NCBI GenBank assembly: GCA_030603385.1
Contig: JAUVXW010000003.1
Span: forward strand, 1 to 64,000
Origin: Promethearchaeota archaeon
GTDB lineage: Archaea > Asgardarchaeota > Lokiarchaeia > Sigyniarchaeales > SOKP01
DNA length: 64,000 nt
Direction: 5' to 3'
Shown piece by piece: positions 51,776 to 62,912 of the stretch (positions within the stretch are counted from its first letter, which is position 1; every line of letters starts with the position of its first letter). The notes under the pieces were generated by a model. It did no database searches and was not told where the DNA came from. It was given only the letters and a program-made list of their open reading frames with translations. The position numbers and the translations under genes are program-made.

Positions 51776-52438
51776 TTAGTTAATCACTTTAAATTGAAGT
51801 TCTGTGCCATTTTTATCAAAACATTTAATATGGTTTATACTATATGGAAAACCTACAATAAAATGAAATCTGTTTCCTTTAAATACACTATTTAAATCTT
51901 GTAAAGAAGGGAATACATTTCCAGATGGATGTGAATGAATGGTTCCTTGATAATATCGATTTATTGGAATTCTACTCGGAAAAAATACTCCTGAATTTCT
52001 TGAAGTAATTGCGCCTGGAGGTAATATAAATTCTGAAAATACATTTTTATCCATTTCAAGGATTCCTAAAAATTCTTTTGGATGATGCGCCCGACATAAC
52101 GCTAAAAACCCCTCTAATAAATCCCTTTTTATTTTGACCGTATTTGATTGTAGATCCTCTAAAATATAAATAATTTCATTAATAACATTTAAAATAGACT
52201 TAGTCTTAATTATTTTCCAATTTTTTAAAGAAGTGATATCATTATTTAATTTTTTATAAACTGTCCCAGATTTAATAAGCTTAACTTTTGGTTTTTTAGG
52301 ATATTTAGAATAGTCAATTTCTAACATAATCCCCTTTATTAATCCAATTTTAATATGTGAAATTTTATTTTCAATAGTTTCAGCGTTAGGAAAATGTTCT
52401 ATAATTTTTTGATATTGTATCTCAATTTCTTTAATCAT
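51776..52438 (-). CDS. UBC/RWD-like domain fused to JAB/MPN+ (JAMM) metalloprotease
   Basis: C-terminal E...HSHPSGNVFPSLQD (HxH-x7-S-x2-D); N-terminal LEIDYSKYPKKPKV resembles the YP..P motif of UBC/RWD folds. Confidence 0.75.
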   Translation of the reverse strand: MIKEIEIQYQKIIEHFPNAETIENKISHIKIGLIKGIMLEIDYSKYPKKPKVKLIKSGTVYKKLNNDITSLKNWKIIKTKSILNVINEIIYILEDLQSNTVKIKRDLLEGFLALCRAHHPKEFLGILEMDKNVFSEFILPPGAITSRNSGVFFPSRIPINRYYQGTIHSHPSGNVFPSLQDLNSVFKGNRFHFIVGFPYSINHIKCFDKNGTELQFKVIN

Positions 52439-52522
52439 TATGTAAATATAATTACGATTTTAAAAGAATGTTTTCTATTTTGGAAATAATATTACTTATG
52501 GAAAGAAGTGAATGTGTTAGTT

Positions 52523-54421
52523 TTACTCCTCTAATTGCTCTATTTCTAAGAGAAAAAGATCTGCGATTGTAATCCATTTTTGTTTTGTTTCATCGTCTAT
52601 AGAGCTGTTCTCTGTTAATTCTTTTCCTTTTTTAAGATTTTCGAGGGCTAAGTCGAAATTTTTAAGCTCTTTATAACAGATCCCTAGTTTAATATAAGTT
52701 TGATGAATGTACCACTCTTTACTATCTAATTCAATAGCTTTTAAGAATTTTTGTGACCCTTCTTCATACTGTTCAAAATACATTAAAATTTCACCATACG
52801 TATCATGATACATTGCATTATCAGGAGCTTTTTCCACAAGATCTTGGATTATATTAAGCGATTCTTCTTTTTTATCTAAATATTGAAGCCAATAAGCTTT
52901 ATAATTAATAAGATCATTGTTTTGAGGATTTTTTTCAATCAATTCATTAATTATGTCTAAACCTGCTTTTACTTCTTGCATCCTTCTAAGAACAGACGCT
53001 TTTTTCATTTTAATATCAAGTTCACTTTCGGGAAATATTACTAACATCTCATTTAGTAAAGTCAATACGTCATCGAATTGATTATAATAAATTAAAATTC
53101 TTATCTTTGAATAGTATAAATCAAGATTCTCTGGATTTGATTCAATTTTTATATCAAGTTTTTTAATTTCTTCTTTATAATCATCTTGTAACTCTTCGAT
53201 ACTTCTTGATTGAAATATATCTATCATATCTTGCCAAATAATGCCTTCTAATTTATCATACGTCTCTTTAAATTCAACTTTTGCTTCAATTTTGTAAGCT
53301 AAATAGTTAATGTATTCTGGTAAAAAAATATGTAAGGGTTCTTTTAAACCAATAGAAAATAATATTTGACAAATATCTTCTAAGATATCATTTATGGTGC
53401 TACTTATATCAAATGATCTTGAAAACAACTTATTTAGATAGGTAAATTTGGTGATATGATCTTCTGTGATAGCTCTAAGCATTATTTCTAATCTTTCATC
53501 CTCCTGAAAGTAATAATGCATATCTGGTTCTACAATAATTTTAAAAAATTTAATGGGAAAAATTTGATTTTCAATAATTTCATCAATATAATAATCCACT
53601 TTAGATTCTTTTATTCCATAAGTATTCGAGAACTCCTCTACGGAAATATAATTAGGATATTGACTTGGGTGATTAATTGAGATAAAAAGTAGGATTTTGT
53701 CAAAATCTTCCTCATTTGTTAGCATTGCTTCAACTCTGGTATAATCCAATTTCAGCATATTGTTGAGTAACCTAAATTGTATGTCTTTATTTTCAATGTT
53801 ATATTTATTAAAAAATTTGATAGTTTTCACTGTAATCTCTTCAATTCTCTTACTTTCTTCCTCTAAAATTGATTGTTTATCTAAATCATATTCTTGTAAT
53901 ATTCTAGAATACTCTATTTTACCTGAGCGGGTAATTCTATATTTCTTTTCCTCTTTTTCTATAAACCCTTTATCGAGTAATAAGTTTATATTCTTAGACA
54001 GGGACGATTGATTGATAGAAAGAGGTTCTGCTAGGAAATCAGCCCATTTGCAAAAATTATTATTATAAACCATCCAAAGAATCCAATGATCGTAATTTCT
54101 TCTTCTTTTAATTATAGCAAGAGGATAACTTAGAGTTCTTTTTTTTTCTTTAGCTTGTGATAATTCAAGATATCTCTTTCTGCCTTCTGAAGTAATTTTA
54201 TAGTGCCCTCTTGAAATATTCTCAGCGAATCCTTTCCCCTTTAATAATGATAGATATTTTGAGAGAGTAGATAACCGAAGTTCAAGCGGTTTTTGAGTAA
54301 AATTAGACCACTCACATTCTTCATTATTATATAACATCCAAAGAATGATATGTTCAAAATTTTTTTTCTCCAGGGCTGGAGGATTATAAATCTCTTTAGG
54401 AGGTAAATTTATTCGACTCAT
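52523..54421 (-). CDS. Tandem winged-helix plus TPR protein (putative transcription regulator)
   Basis: Two wHTH repeats (ILWM.YNN..C.W......STLS/SSLS...G.....Y.IT..G) and C-terminal TPRs. Confidence 0.8.
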   Translation of the reverse strand: MSRINLPPKEIYNPPALEKKNFEHIILWMLYNNEECEWSNFTQKPLELRLSTLSKYLSLLKGKGFAENISRGHYKITSEGRKRYLELSQAKEKKRTLSYPLAIIKRRRNYDHWILWMVYNNNFCKWADFLAEPLSINQSSLSKNINLLLDKGFIEKEEKKYRITRSGKIEYSRILQEYDLDKQSILEEESKRIEEITVKTIKFFNKYNIENKDIQFRLLNNMLKLDYTRVEAMLTNEEDFDKILLFISINHPSQYPNYISVEEFSNTYGIKESKVDYYIDEIIENQIFPIKFFKIIVEPDMHYYFQEDERLEIMLRAITEDHITKFTYLNKLFSRSFDISSTINDILEDICQILFSIGLKEPLHIFLPEYINYLAYKIEAKVEFKETYDKLEGIIWQDMIDIFQSRSIEELQDDYKEEIKKLDIKIESNPENLDLYYSKIRILIYYNQFDDVLTLLNEMLVIFPESELDIKMKKASVLRRMQEVKAGLDIINELIEKNPQNNDLINYKAYWLQYLDKKEESLNIIQDLVEKAPDNAMYHDTYGEILMYFEQYEEGSQKFLKAIELDSKEWYIHQTYIKLGICYKELKNFDLALENLKKGKELTENSSIDDETKQKWITIADLFLLEIEQLEE

Positions 54422-54486
54422 GATATTTTCTTTAAAAGTCTTTATCTTTAGTTATATATAGTTTTTAATACTATATAAATTTCGCG

Positions 54487-54539
54487 AGCTTCCTTTAAAA
54501 TTCGAACTTCATTTGAAGTTCATGTAATAAAACTAAATA
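54487..54539. promoter_or_regulatory. Palindromic operator(s) plus BRE/TATA-like box
   Basis: GAACTTCA-TT-TGAAGTTC 54504-54521 with a degenerate copy at 54487-54502; AAACTAAATA begins 9 nt after AAGTT. Confidence 0.65.
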
Positions 54540-54594
54540 TAGGATACAAACTAAATTATAATTATAACAAAACTAAAAAAAAAGGTAAAAAAAA

Positions 54595-54663
54595 ATGAAA
54601 AAAAATGCCAAGAAAGGATTAATAAAAATAAATAATTACGCTTTTAGATATTTACTCAGATAA
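54595..54663 (+). CDS. Small peptide ORF, 22 aa (MKKNAKKGLIKINNYAFRYLLR)
   Basis: Manual translation; AAGGT upstream, downstream of operator/TATA, followed by T-tracts. Confidence 0.4.
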   Translation: MKKNAKKGLIKINNYAFRYLLR

Positions 54664-54888
54664 ATTTTTCTTTTTCTATTTTTTAATTATTATTATTTAT
54701 CGATTTTTAAACTATTTCTTTCTATTATAAAATCTGTTAAGACTTTATTTTGCTTAATGCAATTCTGCGGGATAACTACATAAATGGGATAAAAAATTTT
54801 TATTATTTCAAGCTAAAATTTTATATTACAAAAAATCTAATCTACTATTAAATAAATTAAGAATATATGATTCCCACAAATAGATTCA

Positions 54889-55428
54889 ATGACTGGTGCT
54901 CAAAAATTTCGATTTAAGATTTCTGTAATAGGCGATGGGCAAGTAGGTAAGACCTCTTTAATTAAAAAGTTCACAAAAGGTTCTTTTAAGAAAGATTATA
55001 TTAAAACTATAGGTGCCCAATTCTCTAAGTATGAAAAAGAAATAGATGGAGATGAGATTCGGTTGATATTCTGGGATATAGCCGGTCAGGATGATTTTCT
55101 TTTTCTACGGCCTTCATTTTATAAAGAAAGTGGGGCAGCAATTATTGTCTTTAGCCTTGAAGAAAATGAGTTAGGTAAACGGAGTTTTGAGCATATAAAT
55201 AATTGGTATGAGAATATTAAAAAATTCTGTGGGGAAATACCAATAATTCTATTTGCTAATAAAGTAGACCTAATTGAGGAAGATAATCTAGATAATTCTG
55301 AATTTCAAAAAATGATAACAAAACATAGTTTTCTAGGATATTACTTGACTTCAGCAAAAACAGGGCAAGGTGTTCATGACGCTTTTAATACTCTTATTAA
55401 TGAATTGTACTATAAATCCAAGACTTAA
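54889..55428 (+). CDS. Rab-like small GTPase
   Basis: GDGQVGKT, YIKTIG, WDIAGQ, NKVD, TSAK; no C-terminal prenylation Cys. Confidence 0.92.
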   Translation: MTGAQKFRFKISVIGDGQVGKTSLIKKFTKGSFKKDYIKTIGAQFSKYEKEIDGDEIRLIFWDIAGQDDFLFLRPSFYKESGAAIIVFSLEENELGKRSFEHINNWYENIKKFCGEIPIILFANKVDLIEEDNLDNSEFQKMITKHSFLGYYLTSAKTGQGVHDAFNTLINELYYKSKT

Positions 55429-55464
55429 CCATGAGTATTATAGGATTATAATATAGTACTATCT

Positions 55465-57987
55465 TTAAAATTCCGTTTCTAGTTGCTCAATCTCTGCTAA
55501 ATAGAGATTTACTATTGCTAGCCATTTTCTTTTTGTATCAAGATCACAAAAACATTTGTTTGTAAATTCTTGACCTTTACTAAGATAATCAATTGCTAAA
55601 TCATAATTTTCAAGTTCCTTATAACATATACCTAACTTTATATAAGTCTGGTTAATATACCACTCATCACTAGCTAATTCTATTGTTTTTAGGAATTCTT
55701 TTGTAGCTTTTTCATACTCCTCGAAGTTCATTAAAATTTCACCATATGTGTCATGGTATATTCCCAACTCGGGACTTTTTTTTATAATCTTCTCGATAGT
55801 TGTTAAAACCTTTTCTTTTTCATCTAAATATTGTAACCAATAAATTTTATTAAGTATGAGACTATTATCTTCGGGATATTTTTCGATTAAATCATTGATT
55901 ATCTCTAAACCTGCTTCAATATTTTTCATTTCTCTAAGAATATACGCTTTTTTAATCTTAAGATTCTTTTCCGCTTCAGGAAAATCAACTAGTAATTTGT
56001 CCAATATGGTTATTATTTCGTCGAACTGGTCAAAATAAATTAAAATCCTAATTTTAGAATTGTACCAATCTAGTGTTTTAGGATTTAATTTAATAGCATT
56101 ATCAATCGATTCTAGAGCATCTTCATAATTATTCAATTCTAGTAGGATTTGGCTTTTTAACTGATAATATCTTGCTTTATTGTTTTTATTTGATTCTAAA
56201 TTAATAGCTTTCTCGATATAACTTATTCCCATTTCTTTATCTGCTTTTTCTGCATCGAATGTATAAATCCTATTATAACCAAGTACTAGTCCCTTTAAAA
56301 CGAGAGAAAGAGGTAGTTTAGGATATATTTCTATTGCTTTATTTGTCATATTTAAAGCATTTTCAATATCTCCTAGAGTCATATATGAAAAAGCTAACAG
56401 AAAAAAATAAGGAGCATATATTTCATCTTCCTTATTAATAAGAGATAAATCTACTTTACTCCTTAAGAATTCTATTAATTCTTTATTCCGATTTAAATGA
56501 CAAAGAATAATTCCTTTAACAATAATGAGATCTAAATTCTTTATCTTCGATTTAGAATTAGCAAAAACTTTACCCAATTCTTCCAATCTTAAAGCTTTAT
56601 CATATTCTTTCGATTTTAAATAATCTTGGATCTTTAAATTTAATTCTTCTGGTTTAAACCAGAAAGCTAAGTATGGTTGTAGTACTTCTAATATTGAGGT
56701 ATCTAAATAATAATTCATTTCGCTTTCACCAATAAATTGATATTGAGAAGTTTTATAAATGTCTGATTGCAATATTTCAGGAATGTTCTGCCAAATAATT
56801 CCTTCTAATTTATCAGAAACACCAACTAACTTCTTTTCTTTCTCAATTTTATATGCTAAATAATTGATATATTCAGGTAAAAATTTTCTTAATGATTTTT
56901 TTAATCCTTCATCGAATACATTTTGGCAAGCTTCGTCCAAAATAGCATTTACAGTAGAACTCATATTTAGAGGGAGAATTAAATCTGAGGAGCCCTCAAA
57001 AAGCTTATTCAGGTAGGTAAACTTTGTAATATGTTCCTCTGTAATAATCCTAAGCATCATCTCTACTTTTTCATCTGATTGAAAATAATAAAATTTATCT
57101 GGGAGCACCTCTAATTTAAAAAATCTTATTGGAAAAATTTGGTTTTCCACTATTTCATCAATATAATAATCAAGAGTAGTTTTTTTAATTCCATATTTTT
57201 CAGAGAATTCTTCAGGAAACATATACTTGGGAAAATCATTTGGATGGTTAATCGAAAGAAGAAGTAATATTTTATGAAAATCCTCCTCATCCCTTAATAC
57301 CGGTTTAATTTTTTCATAGTCTAACCTCAAAACACTATTAAGGAATCGAAATTGAATATCTCTCTCACTGATTTCAAAACTTTCAAAAAAATTTAGTGTT
57401 TTTTGTGTTAGTTCGGTTATTCGTTTACTTTCTTCTTCTAATATCGACTGTCTGTCTAAATCATAATAAGTTAACATTTTAGAATACTCTGATTTACCCA
57501 ATCGAGTAATTCTATATTCTTTATTTTCCTTTATTACAAATGTTTTTTCCATTAATTTATTCATATTCTTTGATAAGGAGGATTGATTAATAGAGAGAGG
57601 TTCTTCAAGGAAATCTCCCCATTTGCAATAATTATTATTATAGACCATCCATAGGATAGTGTGATCATAGTTCCTTTTTGCAAGAATTACCTTTGGAGGA
57701 TAACTTAATTTCCTTCCCCCCTTCTTGGCTTGTCCTAATTCGTAGTATCTTTCTCTTCCTTTAGATGTAATACGATACTGATTGAATTCACTTTTCAAAA
57801 TATGCCCATTGCTTTTAAGTCTATTCAAATAAATAGAAAGTGTTGATCGATTCACTTTTTCTTTTAAATCTGACCAAGAGCATACTTCATTATTGCTTAA
57901 TATCCAAAGAATAATGTACTCATAATTGGGTTTGCCAATTAAAGGATTTAAAATCTCGTCAGGGGGGTAATTACAAGGTGTATCCAA
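55465..57987 (-). CDS. Tandem winged-helix plus TPR protein (paralogue of 52523..54421)
   Basis: Shares long near-identical blocks (ILWMVYNNN, PLSINQSSLSKN, QSILEEESKRI, YHDTYGEILM, QTYIKLGICYKEL); has extra TPRs. Confidence 0.82.
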   Translation of the reverse strand: MDTPCNYPPDEILNPLIGKPNYEYIILWILSNNEVCSWSDLKEKVNRSTLSIYLNRLKSNGHILKSEFNQYRITSKGRERYYELGQAKKGGRKLSYPPKVILAKRNYDHTILWMVYNNNYCKWGDFLEEPLSINQSSLSKNMNKLMEKTFVIKENKEYRITRLGKSEYSKMLTYYDLDRQSILEEESKRITELTQKTLNFFESFEISERDIQFRFLNSVLRLDYEKIKPVLRDEEDFHKILLLLSINHPNDFPKYMFPEEFSEKYGIKKTTLDYYIDEIVENQIFPIRFFKLEVLPDKFYYFQSDEKVEMMLRIITEEHITKFTYLNKLFEGSSDLILPLNMSSTVNAILDEACQNVFDEGLKKSLRKFLPEYINYLAYKIEKEKKLVGVSDKLEGIIWQNIPEILQSDIYKTSQYQFIGESEMNYYLDTSILEVLQPYLAFWFKPEELNLKIQDYLKSKEYDKALRLEELGKVFANSKSKIKNLDLIIVKGIILCHLNRNKELIEFLRSKVDLSLINKEDEIYAPYFFLLAFSYMTLGDIENALNMTNKAIEIYPKLPLSLVLKGLVLGYNRIYTFDAEKADKEMGISYIEKAINLESNKNNKARYYQLKSQILLELNNYEDALESIDNAIKLNPKTLDWYNSKIRILIYFDQFDEIITILDKLLVDFPEAEKNLKIKKAYILREMKNIEAGLEIINDLIEKYPEDNSLILNKIYWLQYLDEKEKVLTTIEKIIKKSPELGIYHDTYGEILMNFEEYEKATKEFLKTIELASDEWYINQTYIKLGICYKELENYDLAIDYLSKGQEFTNKCFCDLDTKRKWLAIVNLYLAEIEQLETEF

Positions 57988-58062
57988 ATTTCATTCATTT
58001 ACCAGTAGATTATATACTTATAATTAATATATAGAAGGGGTTTATTTATACTTTTTGATTAA

Positions 58063-58078
58063 AACTCTAATTAGAGTT
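58063..58078. promoter_or_regulatory. Perfect palindrome AACTC-TAATTA-GAGTT upstream of the wHTH-TPR gene
   Basis: On the minus strand it is followed after 8 nt by AAAGTATAAA (TATA-like). Confidence 0.6.
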
Positions 58079-58144
58079 AAAAAATTACGGATGAAAATGA
58101 ATGTAAATATGTGAGAAAAAAAATATTATCTAAAAAAGATCTAA

Positions 58145-58179
58145 GACTCCATTCAGAGTTTACGATACTAAACTATATA
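58145..58179 (+). promoter_or_regulatory. Operator plus BRE/TATA-like box of ORF 58231
   Basis: GACTC-CATTCA-GAGTT, 9 nt, AAACTATATA. Confidence 0.65.
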
Positions 58180-58230
58180 TTAAACCCTGCTCTAATTATT
58201 CTTAATAAAAAAACAAAAAAGTGAAAAAAA

Positions 58231-58431
58231 ATGACCCAAACTTATCAAAAAATAATAATAGTGAAAAGACCTGAAGTTCAAACACCAATAGAAAGTGAAA
58301 TGGATGAATTACTTGGAGATTTAAATCCAAGATATTTTGAGGAAACTATTCCTTTTAAAGAGGCGATTGAAAGGGTTTATACCTCAGATATTAATGTTGG
58401 TTCTAAATTCAATTTCTTTAGTGTGTTTTAG
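58231..58431 (+). CDS. Small hypothetical protein, 66 aa
   Basis: ORF track; conserved operator-promoter upstream. Confidence 0.65.
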   Translation: MTQTYQKIIIVKRPEVQTPIESEMDELLGDLNPRYFEETIPFKEAIERVYTSDINVGSKFNFFSVF

Positions 58432-58544
58432 AAATAATTAAATTTTTTTTTAATCTTATTTTCAGGTTGAATCTTATTTTCGCATATAAAAATTTTCTGT
58501 TTTTGAAATCCTTAAAAGCAAATTATTTTATCATTTATGCGACT

Positions 58545-58865
58545 ATGAAAAATTTTTCCTCTAAAACTCACTTAAGTAACTATCAATATGCCATAAAAAT
58601 TATTGAAGATTGTAAGGACTATTGGCTTCAAGATCAATTTCCGAATATTGATCAATTTCTATATGATTATGATTTAATAGATATCACTGGAAAAATCCAA
58701 GATTTTAAGTCTTATTATCAATTTAAGGATGCTCTGGATCATTTAACAAACTATAAATTCATCAGGATCTTAATAGATTCTAGAGCAGTTCCTCGAATTT
58801 ATAAGGGGAACAGAGATATTCCAAACAATTTTACTTATGAAGAATATTGGTCAAGAGATTTTTAA
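58545..58865 (+). CDS. Hypothetical protein, 106 aa
   Basis: ORF track (58467 TTG); ATG 58545 is the more plausible start. Confidence 0.55.
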   Translation: MKNFSSKTHLSNYQYAIKIIEDCKDYWLQDQFPNIDQFLYDYDLIDITGKIQDFKSYYQFKDALDHLTNYKFIRILIDSRAVPRIYKGNRDIPNNFTYEEYWSRDF

Positions 58866-59007
58866 AACCTGACGAGCTGAGTCTTTACGAATTTTTAAAC
58901 TATTCTAGTCATATGTTTTAAACTCTATAACTTCTTCTTAAGAATGAACTTATATTAAACAGAGACACATTTTAAGAAGAGATGAGGAGAGTCTAAAACA
59001 AGTCTTA

Positions 59008-59042
59008 AACTCCACTTGAACTTCGCAACGTTAAACTATAAA
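59008..59042 (+). promoter_or_regulatory. Operator plus BRE/TATA-like box of the small-ORF cluster
   Basis: AACTC-CACTTG-AACTT, 9 nt, AAACTATAAA; the downstream TTAAACCYTGCTCTAA is also shared with the 58145 promoter. Confidence 0.65.
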
Positions 59043-59096
59043 TTAAACCTTGCTCTAACTAAACTTATGAGAAAAAATATGAGTGTGAAAAATAAA

Positions 59097-59180
59097 ATGA
59101 AACAAGTCACAGTAAAGGAAGATTCCCTTATCGAACTTGAAGATCTATATATAATTCAGTTCCAAATTCGATATTTTTAG
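59097..59180 (+). CDS. Small peptide ORF, 27 aa (MKQVTVKEDSLIELEDLYIIQFQIRYF)
   Basis: Manual translation; N-terminus resembles that of ORF 59226; alternative in-frame ATG at 59067. Confidence 0.5.
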   Translation: MKQVTVKEDSLIELEDLYIIQFQIRYF

Positions 59181-59225
59181 GGTTTATTAATTTACAAAAA
59201 TATGAATTGAGGGGTGGTAGAATAA

Positions 59226-59480
59226 ATGGTTCAAGTATTAGTTAAGAGAAAGGAATTTGAGGAACCTTTTAAAATAGAAGATGTAATTATTTTAGAAGAG
59301 CTCCCTGCTATTGAGGAAGATTATACGATAGTGAGAGTAAAAGCAGAGGAGAAACCAGTTAAAAATGCTTTATCAAAATTATTGATGAAAGCTAAATATA
59401 ATGCTAAGTATTTAGAAGAGAAAATTCCTGTGGAAAAGGTCAGAAGAAATATTCACTACAGGAACTACGGAAATTTCTAA
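59226..59480 (+). CDS. Small hypothetical protein, 84 aa
   Basis: ORF track; strong SD-like GAGGGGTGG upstream. Confidence 0.7.
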   Translation: MVQVLVKRKEFEEPFKIEDVIILEELPAIEEDYTIVRVKAEEKPVKNALSKLLMKAKYNAKYLEEKIPVEKVRRNIHYRNYGNF

Positions 59481-59531
59481 AAAACAATCTATCATCATAA
59501 CGCTGATTTAATTCATCCGACAAGCCGAAGT

Positions 59532-59587
59532 AGTAAAATCAGGGAGAAGTAAAATCAGGGGGAGGGGGACCTTTTTTATCCCCCTCC
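59532..59587 (+). other. 13-nt direct repeat followed by a GC-rich 9-bp hairpin
   Basis: AGTAAAATCAGGG at 59532 and 59548; GGAGGGGGA 59561-59569 pairs with TCCCCCTCC 59579-59587. Confidence 0.6.
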
Positions 59588-59628
59588 ATTTGATATATAT
59601 TTAAATGATAAAGGGAGGGCGAAATAGA

Positions 59629-59721
59629 ATGAAAATTAAATATTTAGAGAGAATTGAAAGGATTAAGATAAAAAACGATTTAGAAGAGCATAAGGAGCTC
59701 ATTAATCGTATAATAAAATGA
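59629..59721 (+). CDS. Small peptide ORF, 30 aa (MKIKYLERIERIKIKNDLEEHKELINRIIK)
   Basis: Manual translation; SD GGGAGGG upstream. Confidence 0.5.
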   Translation: MKIKYLERIERIKIKNDLEEHKELINRIIK

Positions 59722-59776
59722 TTAATTTTTTCAAATTTTTCAAAATAAAAAAAAATTTAATAGAGGTTGTCAATAA

Positions 59777-59872
59777 ATGAAAGAACAAAAAAAGGATAAG
59801 TGGAAATATTCGATGGGAAGTTTTCTTTTAAATCCAGAAAAATATAAATTTGGATTAAAAGATCTTAAATAA
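59777..59872 (+). CDS. Small peptide ORF, 31 aa (MKEQKKDKWKYSMGSFLLNPEKYKFGLKDLK)
   Basis: Manual translation; SD GAGGT upstream, T-tract downstream. Confidence 0.5.
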   Translation: MKEQKKDKWKYSMGSFLLNPEKYKFGLKDLK

Positions 59873-60043
59873 AATTCAAACTTTTTTTTTTTATTTCAAA
59901 TTATTAGTACAATTTTCAATTTCGTACATTTTTCGATTACTTTTTAGCAGAAACAAAAATTTTATATTAAAAAATAACTGATCTTAGTTTGATTACATTT
60001 TTTTAAATAGAATATATACTTTTTTTATTTCTTCTAAGATTCT

Positions 60044-60601
60044 ATGAGTGATGAAGGTCGTAGGTTCCGATTTAAAATTTCCGTAATAGGTGATGGGCAG
60101 GTAGGTAAGACCTCTTTGATTAAAAAGTTCACTCAAGGATCATTTAAGAAGGATTATGTTAAGACAATAGGGGCACAATTCTCGGTGTACAATAAAGAAT
60201 TAGAAGGAGATAAAATCAGATTATTATTTTGGGATATTGCTGGGCAGGACACCTTCCACTTTTTACGTCCTTCTTTCTTTAAGAACAGCAAAGCTGCTAT
60301 TATTGTATATAGTCTTGAGGATAATAAACTTGGTAAAGAGAGTTTTAAGCATTTATTAGATTGGCACGAAGACATTATAAAACATTGTGGAGATATTCCG
60401 ATAGTTGTATTTGCAAATAAGGTTGATCTAGTAGACGAGGATAACTTAGACGATTCAGATATTAAAGAAATAGTTAAAGAACATAATTTTCTTGGGTATT
60501 ATATAACATCAGCAAAAACAGGGAAGGGTGTAATTACAGCATTTAATATGATAATTGATGAGTTATATAACAAGTTTAAAACATTATCTGTAGAGTTATA
60601 A
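60044..60601 (+). CDS. Rab-like small GTPase (paralogue of 54889..55428)
   Basis: GDGQVGKT, YVKTIG, WDIAGQ, NKVD, TSAK. Confidence 0.92.
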   Translation: MSDEGRRFRFKISVIGDGQVGKTSLIKKFTQGSFKKDYVKTIGAQFSVYNKELEGDKIRLLFWDIAGQDTFHFLRPSFFKNSKAAIIVYSLEDNKLGKESFKHLLDWHEDIIKHCGDIPIVVFANKVDLVDEDNLDDSDIKEIVKEHNFLGYYITSAKTGKGVITAFNMIIDELYNKFKTLSVEL

Positions 60602-60857
60602 GATTGAATTATCATTCAAAAGAAGATTTACTGAGCTTAGATAATTATTGATAATTCAAGATGCTTTTATTTTATTAGAGAGAAGTTTTATAATAAAAAA
60701 AATCTAATCTTACATCATATAAGATTTATTTAACTTATTATTCTAACCTCTATTAAAAATTCTATGATATTCAATTATCTCGAAATAAATTTTATTGAGT
60801 TTATTTTAATACTAATAAGCATTTTAGAATAATTATTGTTCAAAAAGATGAGAAACA

Positions 60858-61214
60858 ATGGAAGGAGAAGAAAAATATCAATGGGTAAAATGTAAAAATT
60901 GTGGATATTTACAGTATAAATCTCATTTAAGATGTTTAAAATGTAAAAATAGTAAATTTGAAAGGATAAACGCTTCAGGAACATGTAAACTTCTTACTTT
61001 TACTATCTTAAAAGCACCTCCTGCTGAATTTAGGAACAATCCTTCATATGCGCTAGGAGTTGTTGAATTTGAAAATGGAGTAAAAGCACTTGGGCAAATA
61101 TCAACACAAGATAATTTAAAAACTGGAATGGAATTAAAACCTATATACACTAAAATTTGCGATAATTTAGATGGAAAAGAAATATATAATTATGTATTCG
61201 AACCAAATTTATAA
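60858..61214 (+). CDS. DUF35 Zn-ribbon/OB-fold protein (thiolase partner)
   Basis: CKNCG...CLKC, PYALGVVEFENG. Confidence 0.88.
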   Translation: MEGEEKYQWVKCKNCGYLQYKSHLRCLKCKNSKFERINASGTCKLLTFTILKAPPAEFRNNPSYALGVVEFENGVKALGQISTQDNLKTGMELKPIYTKICDNLDGKEIYNYVFEPNL

Positions 61215-61235
61215 AATTTATGGAGAATAAAAATA

Positions 61236-62912
61236 ATGTTTACAAATGAAGAACTTCAGAAAATTAAAAGCAAAAGGTCTGAATGGGAAGAACAAAATCT
61301 ATCAAATTTTGTTCAAAAAGGAGAGCGAGAGCAAAAATTTGAAACCCCTTCAGGAATTCCTCTAAAACATGTGTATGGGCCAGAGGATATTGAAAATATT
61401 GATTATTTAGAGGATCTCGGATTCCCTGGGGCACCACCTTTCACTAGGGGGGTATATCCAAATATGTATAGAGGAAAGATTTGGAGTATGAGACAATATA
61501 GTGGTTTTGGTGATGCGCGTAAAACTAATGAACGATTTAAGTATTTAATCTCTCAAGGTCAAAAAGGGCTTTCAATAGCTTTTGATCTTCCTACTCAAAT
61601 GGGGTATAGTTCGGATAATAAGATTTGTTTAGGTGAAGTAGGACGAATTGGCGTCACTGTTAATTCATTGAAGGATTTCGAAAAGGTTTTTAAAGGTATA
61701 GCTTTGGATAAGGTTTCAACCAGTATGACGATAAACGCACCAACATCAATAATATTAGCAATGTATATCGCGATAGGAGAAAAACATGGTGTTAAACAAG
61801 AACAATTAACCGGTACACTTCAAAATGATATTTTGAAAGAATATACTGCAAGGGGAACTTATATCTATCCCCCCAAGCCCTCTTTAAGACTAACCGCAGA
61901 TGTAATTGAATATTGTTCAAAAAATTTGCCAAGATTTAATACAATCAGTATATGTGGTTACCATATGCGTGATGCGGGGAGTAATGCCATTCAGGAATTA
62001 GCATTTACTTTAGCTGATGGTATTTCATATGTTGAAGAGGTTCTCGAAAGGGGCATTGATATTGATGATTTTGCTCCAAGATTATCTTTCTTCTTTACCA
62101 CTCATAATAATTTTTTTGAGGAGATCGCGAAATTAAGAGCGGCAAGACGATTATGGGCGAGGCTCATGAAGGATCGGTTTAATGCTAAAGATCCTAACTC
62201 ATTAAGGTTAAGGTTTCACATCCATACTTCGGGGAGCACATTGACGGCCCAACAACCTCAAATTAATATTATTAGAGCTACTCTTCAATCATTAGCCGCT
62301 ATATTAGGAGGGACTCAATCTCTTCATACTTGTGGAGCTGATGAGGCTTTGGCTATCCCTACTGAAGACTCAGCTAGACTTTCATTAAGAACACAACAAG
62401 TGCTTGCATATGAAACTGGAGTTACGGATGTTGTTGATCCATTGGGTGGATCTTATTATATTGAACATTTGACCAGTAAATTAGAAGAAAAAGCATTGGA
62501 ATATATTGATAAAATAGATAAAATGGGTGGCATGCCTATTGCCATTGAAAATGCTTTTATTCAAAAAGAAATTCTAGATAATGCTTATATGGAACAAAAG
62601 CGGATTGATGATGGAAGTAAAAAAGTCGTTGGAGTAAACATATTTTGCACTGATGACGAATATAAAATAGATACCTTCAAATATGATAAGGACTCTGAAA
62701 GAAGAATCAAAGAAGCATTAAATAATTTAAAGAAAGACCGAAATGTAAACCTCGTTAAAGAAAAATTAAATCAATTAAAAGAAGTTGCTAATTCTTCTGA
62801 AAATATTATGCCGATTATGATTGAGACAGTTAAAACTTACGCTACTGTACAAGAAATTTGTGATGTCCTACGAGATGTATTTGGGGAATATCAGTCTCCT
62901 CAGATATTTTAA
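61236..62912 (+). CDS. Methylmalonyl-CoA mutase, substrate-binding (large) subunit
   Basis: PFTRGVYPNMYRG, MRQYSGF, AFDLPTQMG, QNDILKEYTARGTYIYPP, GYHMRDAG. Confidence 0.92.
   Translation: MFTNEELQKIKSKRSEWEEQNLSNFVQKGEREQKFETPSGIPLKHVYGPEDIENIDYLEDLGFPGAPPFTRGVYPNMYRGKIWSMRQYSGFGDARKTNERFKYLISQGQKGLSIAFDLPTQMGYSSDNKICLGEVGRIGVTVNSLKDFEKVFKGIALDKVSTSMTINAPTSIILAMYIAIGEKHGVKQEQLTGTLQNDILKEYTARGTYIYPPKPSLRLTADVIEYCSKNLPRFNTISICGYHMRDAGSNAIQELAFTLADGISYVEEVLERGIDIDDFAPRLSFFFTTHNNFFEEIAKLRAARRLWARLMKDRFNAKDPNSLRLRFHIHTSGSTLTAQQPQINIIRATLQSLAAILGGTQSLHTCGADEALAIPTEDSARLSLRTQQVLAYETGVTDVVDPLGGSYYIEHLTSKLEEKALEYIDKIDKMGGMPIAIENAFIQKEILDNAYMEQKRIDDGSKKVVGVNIFCTDDEYKIDTFKYDKDSERRIKEALNNLKKDRNVNLVKEKLNQLKEVANSSENIMPIMIETVKTYATVQEICDVLRDVFGEYQSPQIF

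Follow-up and report, generated by a model that had tools for sequence, protein, structure and literature searches.

Which partner does a winged-helix regulator keep when its gene stands beside both small genes and a Rab-like GTPase gene in an Asgard archaeon, and what might it sense? The question is raised by a window of 64,000 nucleotides (nt) from a Promethearchaeota archaeon (assembly GCA_030603385.1, contig JAUVXW010000003.1, positions 1 to 64,000), in which a listing of open reading frames (ORFs) and Pfam matches delineate two adjacent cassettes of this Loki-type Asgard genome at 52523-55428 and 55465-60601. Each cassette comprises a minus-strand gene for a protein with tandem winged helix-turn-helix (wHTH) domains and tetratricopeptide repeats (TPR), termed reg1 (52523-54421) and reg2 (55465-57987), a palindromic operator adjoining a TATA-like box, and, on the plus strand, conserved small ORFs and a gene for a Ras/Rab-like GTPase, ras1 (54889-55428) and ras2 (60044-60601). 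The preliminary description of this locus had recognized the same two units of wHTH-TPR gene, small ORFs and GTPase, and the ORF listing and Pfam bear this anatomy out. From sequence comparison, the architecture of regulator, operator, small ORF and GTPase evidently forms a conserved, co-diversifying unit and not a chance neighbourhood. As an overall explanation we hold, with slightly better than even confidence in the whole, that the cassettes encode a lineage-specific local transcription factor, probably an activator, of microprotein genes, whose TPR domain receives a protein input, and that the cassette system is specific to one genus of Lokiarchaeia (Promethearchaeota).

The comparisons drew on one genus and a single outlier (G026, from another family of the same order), with G000 denoting the source genome, a 3.9-Mb assembly, and the regulator-family counts cover 25 genomes. 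In the genome-wide collection of wHTH-TPR paralogues that the preliminary description had called for, adjoining operators, small ORFs and GTPases recur, and the linkage of regulator and GTPase, which that description allowed might be unique to this locus, extends well beyond it. A GTPase of the ras1 subfamily lies within 4.5 kb of 50 of the 113 regulator paralogues in the 25 genomes, always on the opposite strand. Among these 50 GTPase-linked regulators, 43 have the GTPase divergent upstream, 23 downstream (convergent) and 16 on both sides; seven of the 23 downstream GTPases stand tail-to-tail within 50 nt of the regulator. This linkage is confined to three regulator clades, named A, B and C. 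As a separate observation, the GTPase tail-to-tail with the 3' end of the regulator, at 3-45 nt, recurs as a second fixed arrangement (55428-55465 in the window, where 36 nt separate ras1 from reg2, and loci L033, L034, L035, L038 and L039).

The microprotein pairing is more constant. The two microproteins of the second cassette, o66 (66 amino acids, aa; 58231-58431, plus strand) and o84 (84 aa; 59226-59480, plus strand), belong to one family, of which iteration with a hidden Markov model (HMM) gathered 38 members, 58-92 aa long, from the fetched loci. Every one near a regulator (36/36) is divergent from it, and every one with a GTPase nearby (29/29) is on the GTPase strand. The fetched loci had been chosen by their regulator, and the microprotein count was repeated by a profile search of whole genomes: eight of nine matches in five other genomes, and two of three in the source genome, are placed upstream of a regulator gene and divergent from it. 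The pairing is also found at regulator paralogues of less than 45% identity without a GTPase nearby, and outside the genus in G026. Since the microprotein pairing is constant whereas the GTPase linkage is limited to certain clades, the microprotein, not the GTPase, appears to be the core partner of the regulator family. The word 'peptides' in the preliminary description is imprecise: products of 22-30 aa do exist, but the most constant partner is this family of 58-92 aa microproteins.

The close association of microprotein and GTPase genes invites another explanation, namely that the microproteins are regulators, effectors or adaptors of the GTPases and that the regulator does no more than adjust their expression to an unrelated signal sensed by its TPR domain. 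We judge this to be rather doubtful. The two kinds of gene are interleaved on the same strand, in arrays such as small ORF, ras, o31, o84, ras (L043, L033 and L034), and a single GTPase subfamily is involved, as this explanation would have it. However, at L046, L048, L050 and L051 microproteins accompany distant regulator paralogues in the absence of a nearby GTPase, and orphan copies, such as the one on contig C36 of the source genome, have no GTPase neighbour according to a Ras search of that genome.

In the regulator tree, the reg1 type makes up clade A, and clade B (the reg2 type, of 830-844 aa) and clade C (640 aa) are sisters of each other. The same pattern returns in the GTPase tree, where the GTPases encoded upstream of B and of C fall into a single clade (99/97); inside it the upstream-of-B subclade is well supported (95/91) and the upstream-of-C group is weaker (86/86). 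GTPases upstream of clade A fall elsewhere in the tree, and those located tail-to-tail downstream of A form a clade of their own (98/93). The two cassettes thus represent an old duplication of a pair that was kept through the genus, and the co-diversification therefore reflects few independent events, not dozens. Operators co-vary with the regulator clade as well. Half-sites of the ACTTC/ACTTT type accompany clade A in 17 of 17 cases, and ACTCC/ACTCT accompany clades B and C in 15 of 17. The product follows the operator type, ACTTC preceding genes for peptides of 22-30 aa and ACTCC preceding o66-type microproteins. The peptides of 22-30 aa fall into two families, one resembling MKK..K.GLIKINNYGQNP..RDLLK and the other ..LLHPKKY.FGLKDL.

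These patterns also bear on the possibility that there is no functional coupling and that the genes are neighbours through common descent only, one genus having retained an old segmental duplication by inertia. Evidence from one genus and one outlier would be compatible with it, given that orthologous synteny is expected at this depth, and the GTPases have independent promoters. Nevertheless we consider it improbable, since the strand relation is unchanged despite spacers of 220 to >3000 nt, divergent and tail-to-tail variants, and gains and losses of ORFs; the operator is rare genome-wide and tracks the regulator clade; and the microprotein stays with the regulator at the low identities, and in the outlier, mentioned above.

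The operator has the form rACTyy-N4-rrAGTy and sits about 9 nt upstream of the TATA-like word AAACTAWAWAT. When the reg1-ras1 spacer is aligned across six species, the order of the module is palindrome, TATA-like word 9 nt on, a Shine-Dalgarno (SD)-like AGGT or GTGA with an A-run, and lastly the ATG of the tiny gene, 61-66 nt downstream when counted from the start of the TATA-like word. The window holds three perfect matches to the operator (54505, 58063 and 58145), all in cassette spacers, and one match with a single mismatch at 59008; all five AAACTAWAWAT words of the window, one of them on the minus strand, likewise fall inside the two cassettes. The shared operator-promoter proposed for each unit is real in this respect, its perfect matches in the window being confined to the cassette spacers.

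In the first cassette, operator P1 (GAACTTCATTTGAAGTTC, 54504-54521) is a perfect palindrome with the ACTTC half-site, located 83-100 nt from the reg1 start and conserved in orthologues. The TATA-like box of the peptide promoter (AAACTAAATAT, 54530-54540, plus strand) follows after 9 nt, and a TATA-like word on the minus strand (AAACTATATAT, 54454-54464), 43 nt before the reg1 start codon, is the presumed reg1 promoter. In the second cassette, P2a (AACTCTAATTAGAGTT, 58063-58078) is a perfect palindrome 76-91 nt from the reg2 start with no TATA box adjoining, P2b (GACTCCATTCAGAGTT) and the TATA-like AAACTATATAT make up the o66 promoter (58145-58180, plus strand), and P2c (AACTCCACTTGAACTT, one mismatch) with the TATA-like AAACTATAAAT (59008-59043, plus strand) precedes a remnant gene at 59097. 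The promoter is present here as an 85-nt direct repeat at 58129-58213 and 58992-59076. Six clade-B spacers include the P2a stretch; five of them have it unchanged and the sixth (G013) with one mismatch, with variable flanks, and the shorter spacer of G018 is without it. P1 and P2b are conserved across species too, again with varying flanks in the case of P2b. In most loci of clades A and C, 82-88 nt separate the proximal operator from the start codon, and clade B has a matching distance.

On the scale of genomes, a regular-expression search found five copies of the combined operator and TATA module in the 3.9 Mb of the source genome, three at this locus and one each on contigs C36 and C53, every one of them followed by a small ORF whose distance is fixed. 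The strict module pattern gave 43 matches in 31 genomes of the genus and none in the reversed control. By coordinate comparison, 13 of its 32 matches in G000-G024 are located at most 1.3 kb upstream of, and divergent from, a regulator-family gene. This strict operator pattern misses the P2b type (AGAGTT), and a relaxed form was used for the later comparisons. Both orphan modules of the source genome are far from regulator genes: that on C36 (21236-21533; L004, 6237-6537) stands before a 69-aa paralogue of o66 with 55% identity, and that on C53 (79947-79982, minus strand) before a 24-aa Lys-rich ORF conserved in G019. A conserved variant of the orphan module, ..GAAGTTCAAyAwTTyAAACTATAwAT, was noted at L147-L153 (G007, G016, G011, G017, G005, G003 and G001), where it stands 150-250 nt before the larger genes discussed below. 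Rfam had no matches on the orphan-module loci.

The regulators themselves are probably one-component transcription factors, as predicted from their domains. The product of reg1 belongs to clade A and has 632 aa; that of reg2 belongs to clade B, starts with TTG and has 840 aa, including about 210 aa of extra TPR. Their identity is 60% in residues 1-405 and 56% in the C-terminal TPR. The winged-helix family HTH_45 scores above its curated cutoff of 25.5 bits in both (40.1 bits in reg1, 30.8 in reg2), with weaker matches to HTH_34, MarR and HVO_A0261_N, and the TPR part matches TPR_2, TPR_1, TPR_8 and related families. An AlphaFold2 (AF2) model of reg1 (mean predicted local distance difference test score, pLDDT, 85.7) contains wHTH1 (22-89) and wHTH2 (110-177), both helix-helix-helix-strand-strand units, then a long helix, a third winged-helix-like unit (237-306), a helical linker and a TPR solenoid (408-631). 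Among the top PDB matches that Foldseek listed for the full model there were only generic TPR proteins (consensus TPR, OGT, APC/C, MamA and Tom70), with probability 1.0; because the TPR domain dominates the search, Foldseek is uninformative on the winged-helix part. The source genome has two copies only of the regulator family, while 4-13 matches to reg1, counted as matches and not as copies, were obtained in other species of the genus.

How might such a factor work? The tandem winged helices would bind the rACTyy-N4-rrAGTT palindrome, probably as a dimer. In archaeal promoters, activators such as Ptr2 sit upstream of the transcription factor B recognition element (BRE), whereas repressors usually bind over the TATA box or the start site. 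Since the operator is located just upstream of BRE/TATA, activation of the microprotein genes by the bound factor is favoured and seems reasonably likely, and control of the divergent reg promoter by its own product is possible. The paralogues would have diverged in specificity, reg1 (clade A) serving ACTTC half-sites and peptides of 22-30 aa, and reg2 (clade B) serving ACTCC/ACTCT half-sites and microproteins of 58-85 aa.

The input domain would be the TPR solenoid at the C-terminus, acting through protein-protein binding, either with the neighbouring Rab-like GTPase as a GTPase-gated switch or with the microproteins as intracellular feedback. We regard these two ligands as about equally likely, and there is a sizeable chance of some other ligand. 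The GTPase is a candidate in view of the conserved linkage, the precedent of MglA and Bd2492 described below, and a pooled partial Mantel correlation between TPR and GTPase, given the DNA-binding domain, of 0.43 (p about 5e-4), that between DNA-binding domain and GTPase, given TPR, being 0.28. The microprotein is a candidate as the constant partner and, from its model, as what looks like a ligand that folds on binding. A more ambitious proposal, which we put forward tentatively and well short of even confidence, is a self-contained Asgard circuit in which the factor would read the nucleotide state of the GTPase or the level of the microprotein and drive a private microprotein regulon.

A stricter alternative for the input is RRNPP-like signalling, in which the short ORF products, perhaps processed or exported and re-imported, bind the TPR domain and switch DNA binding; this would amount to an archaeal analogue of Rgg/SHP or PlcR/PapR quorum sensing. 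It has the right gene arrangement, with small ORFs divergent beside a DNA-binding and TPR protein and paralogues with cognate ORF types, and a microprotein predicted to be largely disordered with C-terminal helices and an aromatic end would be in keeping with a ligand whose folding is induced by the receptor. A Lys duplet also opens the peptides of 22-30 aa, as it does 56% of RRNPPA propeptides, among them propeptides for which Sec is not the predicted route (PMC9765709). In RRNPP propeptides, however, the export signal is a Lys duplet followed by a hydrophobic region, for the Sec or PptAB route (PMC9765709), and a hydrophobic export region is missing here: the maximal Kyte-Doolittle 9-mer average is at most 1.6 in every small ORF product (0.58-1.59), with no hydrophobic signal-peptide or membrane-anchor stretch in any of them. 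This agrees with the preliminary description, which saw no obvious signal sequences. The DNA-binding domains are winged helices and not XRE-type HTH, no XRE or RRNPP family matches the regulators in Pfam at E<=0.01, and RRNPP receptors are not among the top PDB matches listed by Foldseek, which are the generic TPR proteins given above. Moreover, the microproteins diverge along with the DNA-binding domain, not with the TPR, and a fourth clade of regulators, clade D, has no adjoining small ORF. We therefore think strict RRNPP-like signalling unlikely.

Several of these observations, and some others, also weigh against our preferred explanation of a local activator of microprotein genes with a protein input. 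The compared loci are mostly orthologues inside one genus, so that the counts overstate independence. The partial correlation between TPR and microprotein is -0.15, compared with 0.49 between DNA-binding domain and microprotein (16 pairs, short alignments). The idea of an Asgard peptide-responsive transcription system tied to small GTPases, which the preliminary description had inferred, is supported in part: the unit is conserved and co-diversifying, but beyond the DNA-binding domain the microproteins diverge without tracking the TPR. For the GTPase, the TPR-GTPase partial correlation by clade is 0.30, -0.08 and 0.58 and holds in one of three clades; because it fails within the other two, we do not rely on the pooled signal. 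The large sister clade D, about 60% identical to reg1, has neither an adjoining GTPase nor these small ORFs, and its regulators have a variant GAACT-type repeat operator by a TATA box that drives assorted divergent genes. The GTPase genes have their own conserved, operator-free promoters, with oligo-T tracts between them and the small ORFs, and hence are not obviously within the regulon; in addition, three GTPase paralogues of 61-67% identity are found beside unrelated genes in the source genome. Finally, some orphan modules precede, by 150-250 nt, not small ORFs but larger genes that resemble aldehyde:ferredoxin oxidoreductase (AOR) or aldo-keto reductase, labels that rest on resemblance of the N-terminus, so that the regulon may extend to metabolic genes. 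In clade D (L099-L132), the conserved GAACT-type array was observed in the 600 nt upstream of the regulator start, and the divergent genes driven from the TATA box differ by species and include membrane and secreted-looking proteins.

The small ORFs have the signature of coding genes. The possibility that they are unconserved had been left open in the preliminary description; they are conserved and for the most part show purifying selection, with ratios of nonsynonymous to synonymous substitution rates (dN/dS, by the Nei-Gojobori method against five or six species) mostly below 0.5, although for the short ORFs these ratios are subject to ascertainment bias because the ORFs were found by protein similarity. 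For comparison, dN/dS of ras1 is 0.07-0.18. Searches with tblastn recover o66, o132, o84, o38 and o31 in other species, and the small ORFs carry SD-like sequences. Where small ORFs were described for unit 1, there is a single one, encoding a Lys-rich peptide of 22 aa (54595-54663, plus strand; 26 aa in relatives), with AGGT and an A-run before the ATG, oligo-T tracts after it, and dN/dS of 0.16-0.65. In the second cassette, o66, a member of the o66/o84 (N-x-x-Y-F/L-E-E) HMM family, has dN/dS of 0.28-0.50 and is followed on the same strand by o132 (58467-58865, start TTG 58467 or ATG 58545), a conserved small protein of 106-132 aa with dN/dS of 0.07-0.14, which is found in clade-B loci only, is 72-96% identical in four species, and has neither a Pfam match nor a usable ESM Atlas match. 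The remnant gene (59097-59180, plus strand) is that of a second o66-type gene, of which a 27-aa ORF is left; the full gene encodes 81-84 aa in G019 and G002, relative to which the remnant is frameshifted by a 161-nt deletion.

The next gene, o84, has a strong SD (GGGGTGGT) and dN/dS of 0.18-0.26; in its AF2 model (pLDDT 63) the N-terminal half is disordered and C-terminal helices span 47-79. It is followed by o38 (59629-59721, plus strand), a 30-aa ORF with the SD GGGAGGG and dN/dS of about 1 on very few changes, 73-83% identical in three species for the 30-aa version and 81-92% for a longer 38-aa version, which we regard as a candidate protein-coding gene. The last is o31 (59777-59872, plus strand; dN/dS 0.40-0.66), which encodes a 31-aa peptide of the '...LLNPxKYxFGLKDL' family and precedes a T11 run. 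Two further corrections to the small ORFs initially listed are that 59016-59180 is the remnant of an o66-type gene and that the 38-aa ORF probably starts at 59629 (30 aa). The microprotein family has the C-terminal core L..L.N.(K/R)Y(F/L)EE.IP... and its proteins end in an aromatic residue. A profile search collected 433 public clusters, all 'hypothetical' or unnamed, and those labelled with an organism are all from Promethearchaeota-type metagenome-assembled genomes or marine-sediment metagenomes. Pfam searches at E<=5 with the small ORFs and the middle region of the regulator gave no match, except for a chance match to Periphilin_C at E 0.22.

The GTPases of 179 aa (ras1; Ras family E 2.7e-41) and 185 aa (ras2; E 3.9e-39) are 70% identical, in agreement with their earlier characterization as close paralogues. 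Motifs G1-G5 of the Ras-superfamily G domain are intact (GDGQVGKT, switch I T, DIAGQD, NKVD and SAK), and the C-terminal prenylation Cys is absent in both, ras1 ending in YYKSKT and ras2 in KTLSVEL. Among the top PDB matches, ras1 is closest to Rab23 (E 9e-33), to Rab21 and to the Thorarchaeota Rab 7EZB, and RhoA comes almost as near. 'Rab-like' is thus a fair description, the closest relatives being Rabs, but the plain 'Rab' of the preliminary description is too strong, given RhoA and the missing Cys. As a tblastn query, ras1 gave about 60 Ras-family matches in the source assembly. The putative ras1 promoter block (AAAATTTTATATTAC..., 54810-54857, plus strand) is conserved in the alignment and has no operator match, and the ras2 block (AAAAATTTTATATTAAAAAAT, 59955-59975, plus strand), assigned by comparison, resembles it. 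The GTPases as members of the operator regulon were rejected for now, as no operator is found near either ras promoter.

Other features of the region are less distinctive. Between o84 and the 30-aa ORF, two direct repeats AGTAAAATCAGGG stand just before a GC-rich hairpin of 9 bp, GGAGGGGGA-N9-TCCCCCTCC (59561-59587; with the repeats 59529-59587, plus strand), which is conspicuous in DNA of 25-30% GC; its stability against shuffles is not significant (z -1.6) and Rfam gave no match to it. Rfam and tRNA scans of 52000-61500 likewise returned no matches. Directly downstream of reg1 is a 220-aa Prok-JAB (JAMM/MPN) gene (51776-52438, minus strand), kept in G019 (97% identical) and G005 (82%). On the other side, a methylmalonyl-CoA mutase gene (61236-62912) is closely preceded by a 118-aa ORF with no family assigned (60858-61214, plus strand), which has 85-93% identity in G019 and G002. 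No sign of a mobile element or defence island was seen at the locus, though no search was aimed at them.

Asgard genomes carry dozens of Ras-superfamily GTPases each, and to our knowledge almost nothing is known of their interaction partners. Here one GTPase subfamily is tied, throughout a genus, to a probable transcription factor, a rare operator that tracks its paralogues and conserved microprotein families, so that the function of Asgard small GTPases becomes testable at the bench with a few small soluble proteins and DNA sites of 16-18 bp. Public records list these microproteins as 'hypothetical protein' only, and a full-text literature search, which most subscription journals lie outside, found no paper describing the regulator, the microproteins or their linkage. 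The transcription-factor repertoire of the Asgard archaea, the nearest archaeal kin of eukaryotes, is poorly known, and several new microprotein families and a new regulator family would be added to it. If the self-contained circuit were true, it would have no described counterpart and would be the first defined input-output wiring for any Asgard small GTPase; should the peptides turn out to be the ligands, it would be the first transcription system of archaea that senses peptides.

Among known regulators, the large actinobacterial activators of the SARP/AfsR type consist of an OmpR-type wHTH, a BTAD, an NB-ARC ATPase and a C-terminal TPR, and bind direct repeats upstream of the core promoter. 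They share with reg1 and reg2 the combination of a winged-helix domain and a C-terminal TPR array in one protein, as well as sites just upstream of the core promoter, but here the winged helices are tandem and HTH_45/MarR-like, there is no ATPase, the sites are palindromic and the promoter is archaeal. Pairs of Ras-superfamily GTPases and TPR proteins are also known, such as MglA-SgmX in Myxococcus and Rac-GTP with the TPR domain of p67phox. In Bdellovibrio, the Ras-like GTPase MglA binds the TPR protein Bd2492 as a 1:1 complex (PMC3983030). The GTPase and TPR protein of the cassettes are likewise paired, by gene linkage; in contrast to those TPR partners, which are scaffolds or effectors without a DNA-binding domain, the TPR is here fused to winged helices and encoded beside operators. 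Asgard 'Rab-like' small GTPases have been covered before (PMC4915359 and PMC10933270, the latter including the Thorarchaeota Rab structure 7EZB); ras1 and ras2 share their Ras-superfamily G domains and differ in lacking a prenylation Cys. The term 'TPR' occurs 0 times in the full text of PMC10933270.

The resemblance to the conservons of actinobacteria (CvnA-D) is looser. These are operons in which the GTPase is encoded together with a histidine-kinase-like protein, a roadblock protein and one that has a domain of unknown function (PMC13343842). Both systems are multi-copy cassettes that couple a small Ras-like GTPase to dedicated partners, but there is no kinase or roadblock protein in our cassettes, the genes are divergent and not in an operon, and the partners are a DNA-binding TPR protein and microproteins. 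The RRNPP(A) systems of Bacillota (Rgg/SHP, PlcR/PapR, NprR/NprX, PrgX and AimR/AimP; PMC9765709) are similar in layout, having a cytoplasmic protein in which an N-terminal DNA-binding domain is combined with a C-terminal TPR-type domain, a small ORF adjoining the regulator gene and an expansion into paralogous cognate pairs. They differ in having one XRE-type HTH, compared with two (perhaps three) winged helices here and no detectable sequence homology; in addition, the small ORF products of the cassettes have no export signal, microproteins of 58-92 aa account for many of the partners, the cassettes belong to an Asgard archaeon, and a Rab-like GTPase is in the neighbourhood. The resemblance to RRNPP is therefore in logic only, membership failing on the type of DNA-binding domain, the export signal and the taxon, and the preliminary description was justified in claiming no homology to that family. 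Set beside these systems, the cassettes appear to encode a lineage-specific and previously uncharacterised sensor-domain transcription factor with cognate small ORFs, with an unusual tie to Rab-like GTPases.

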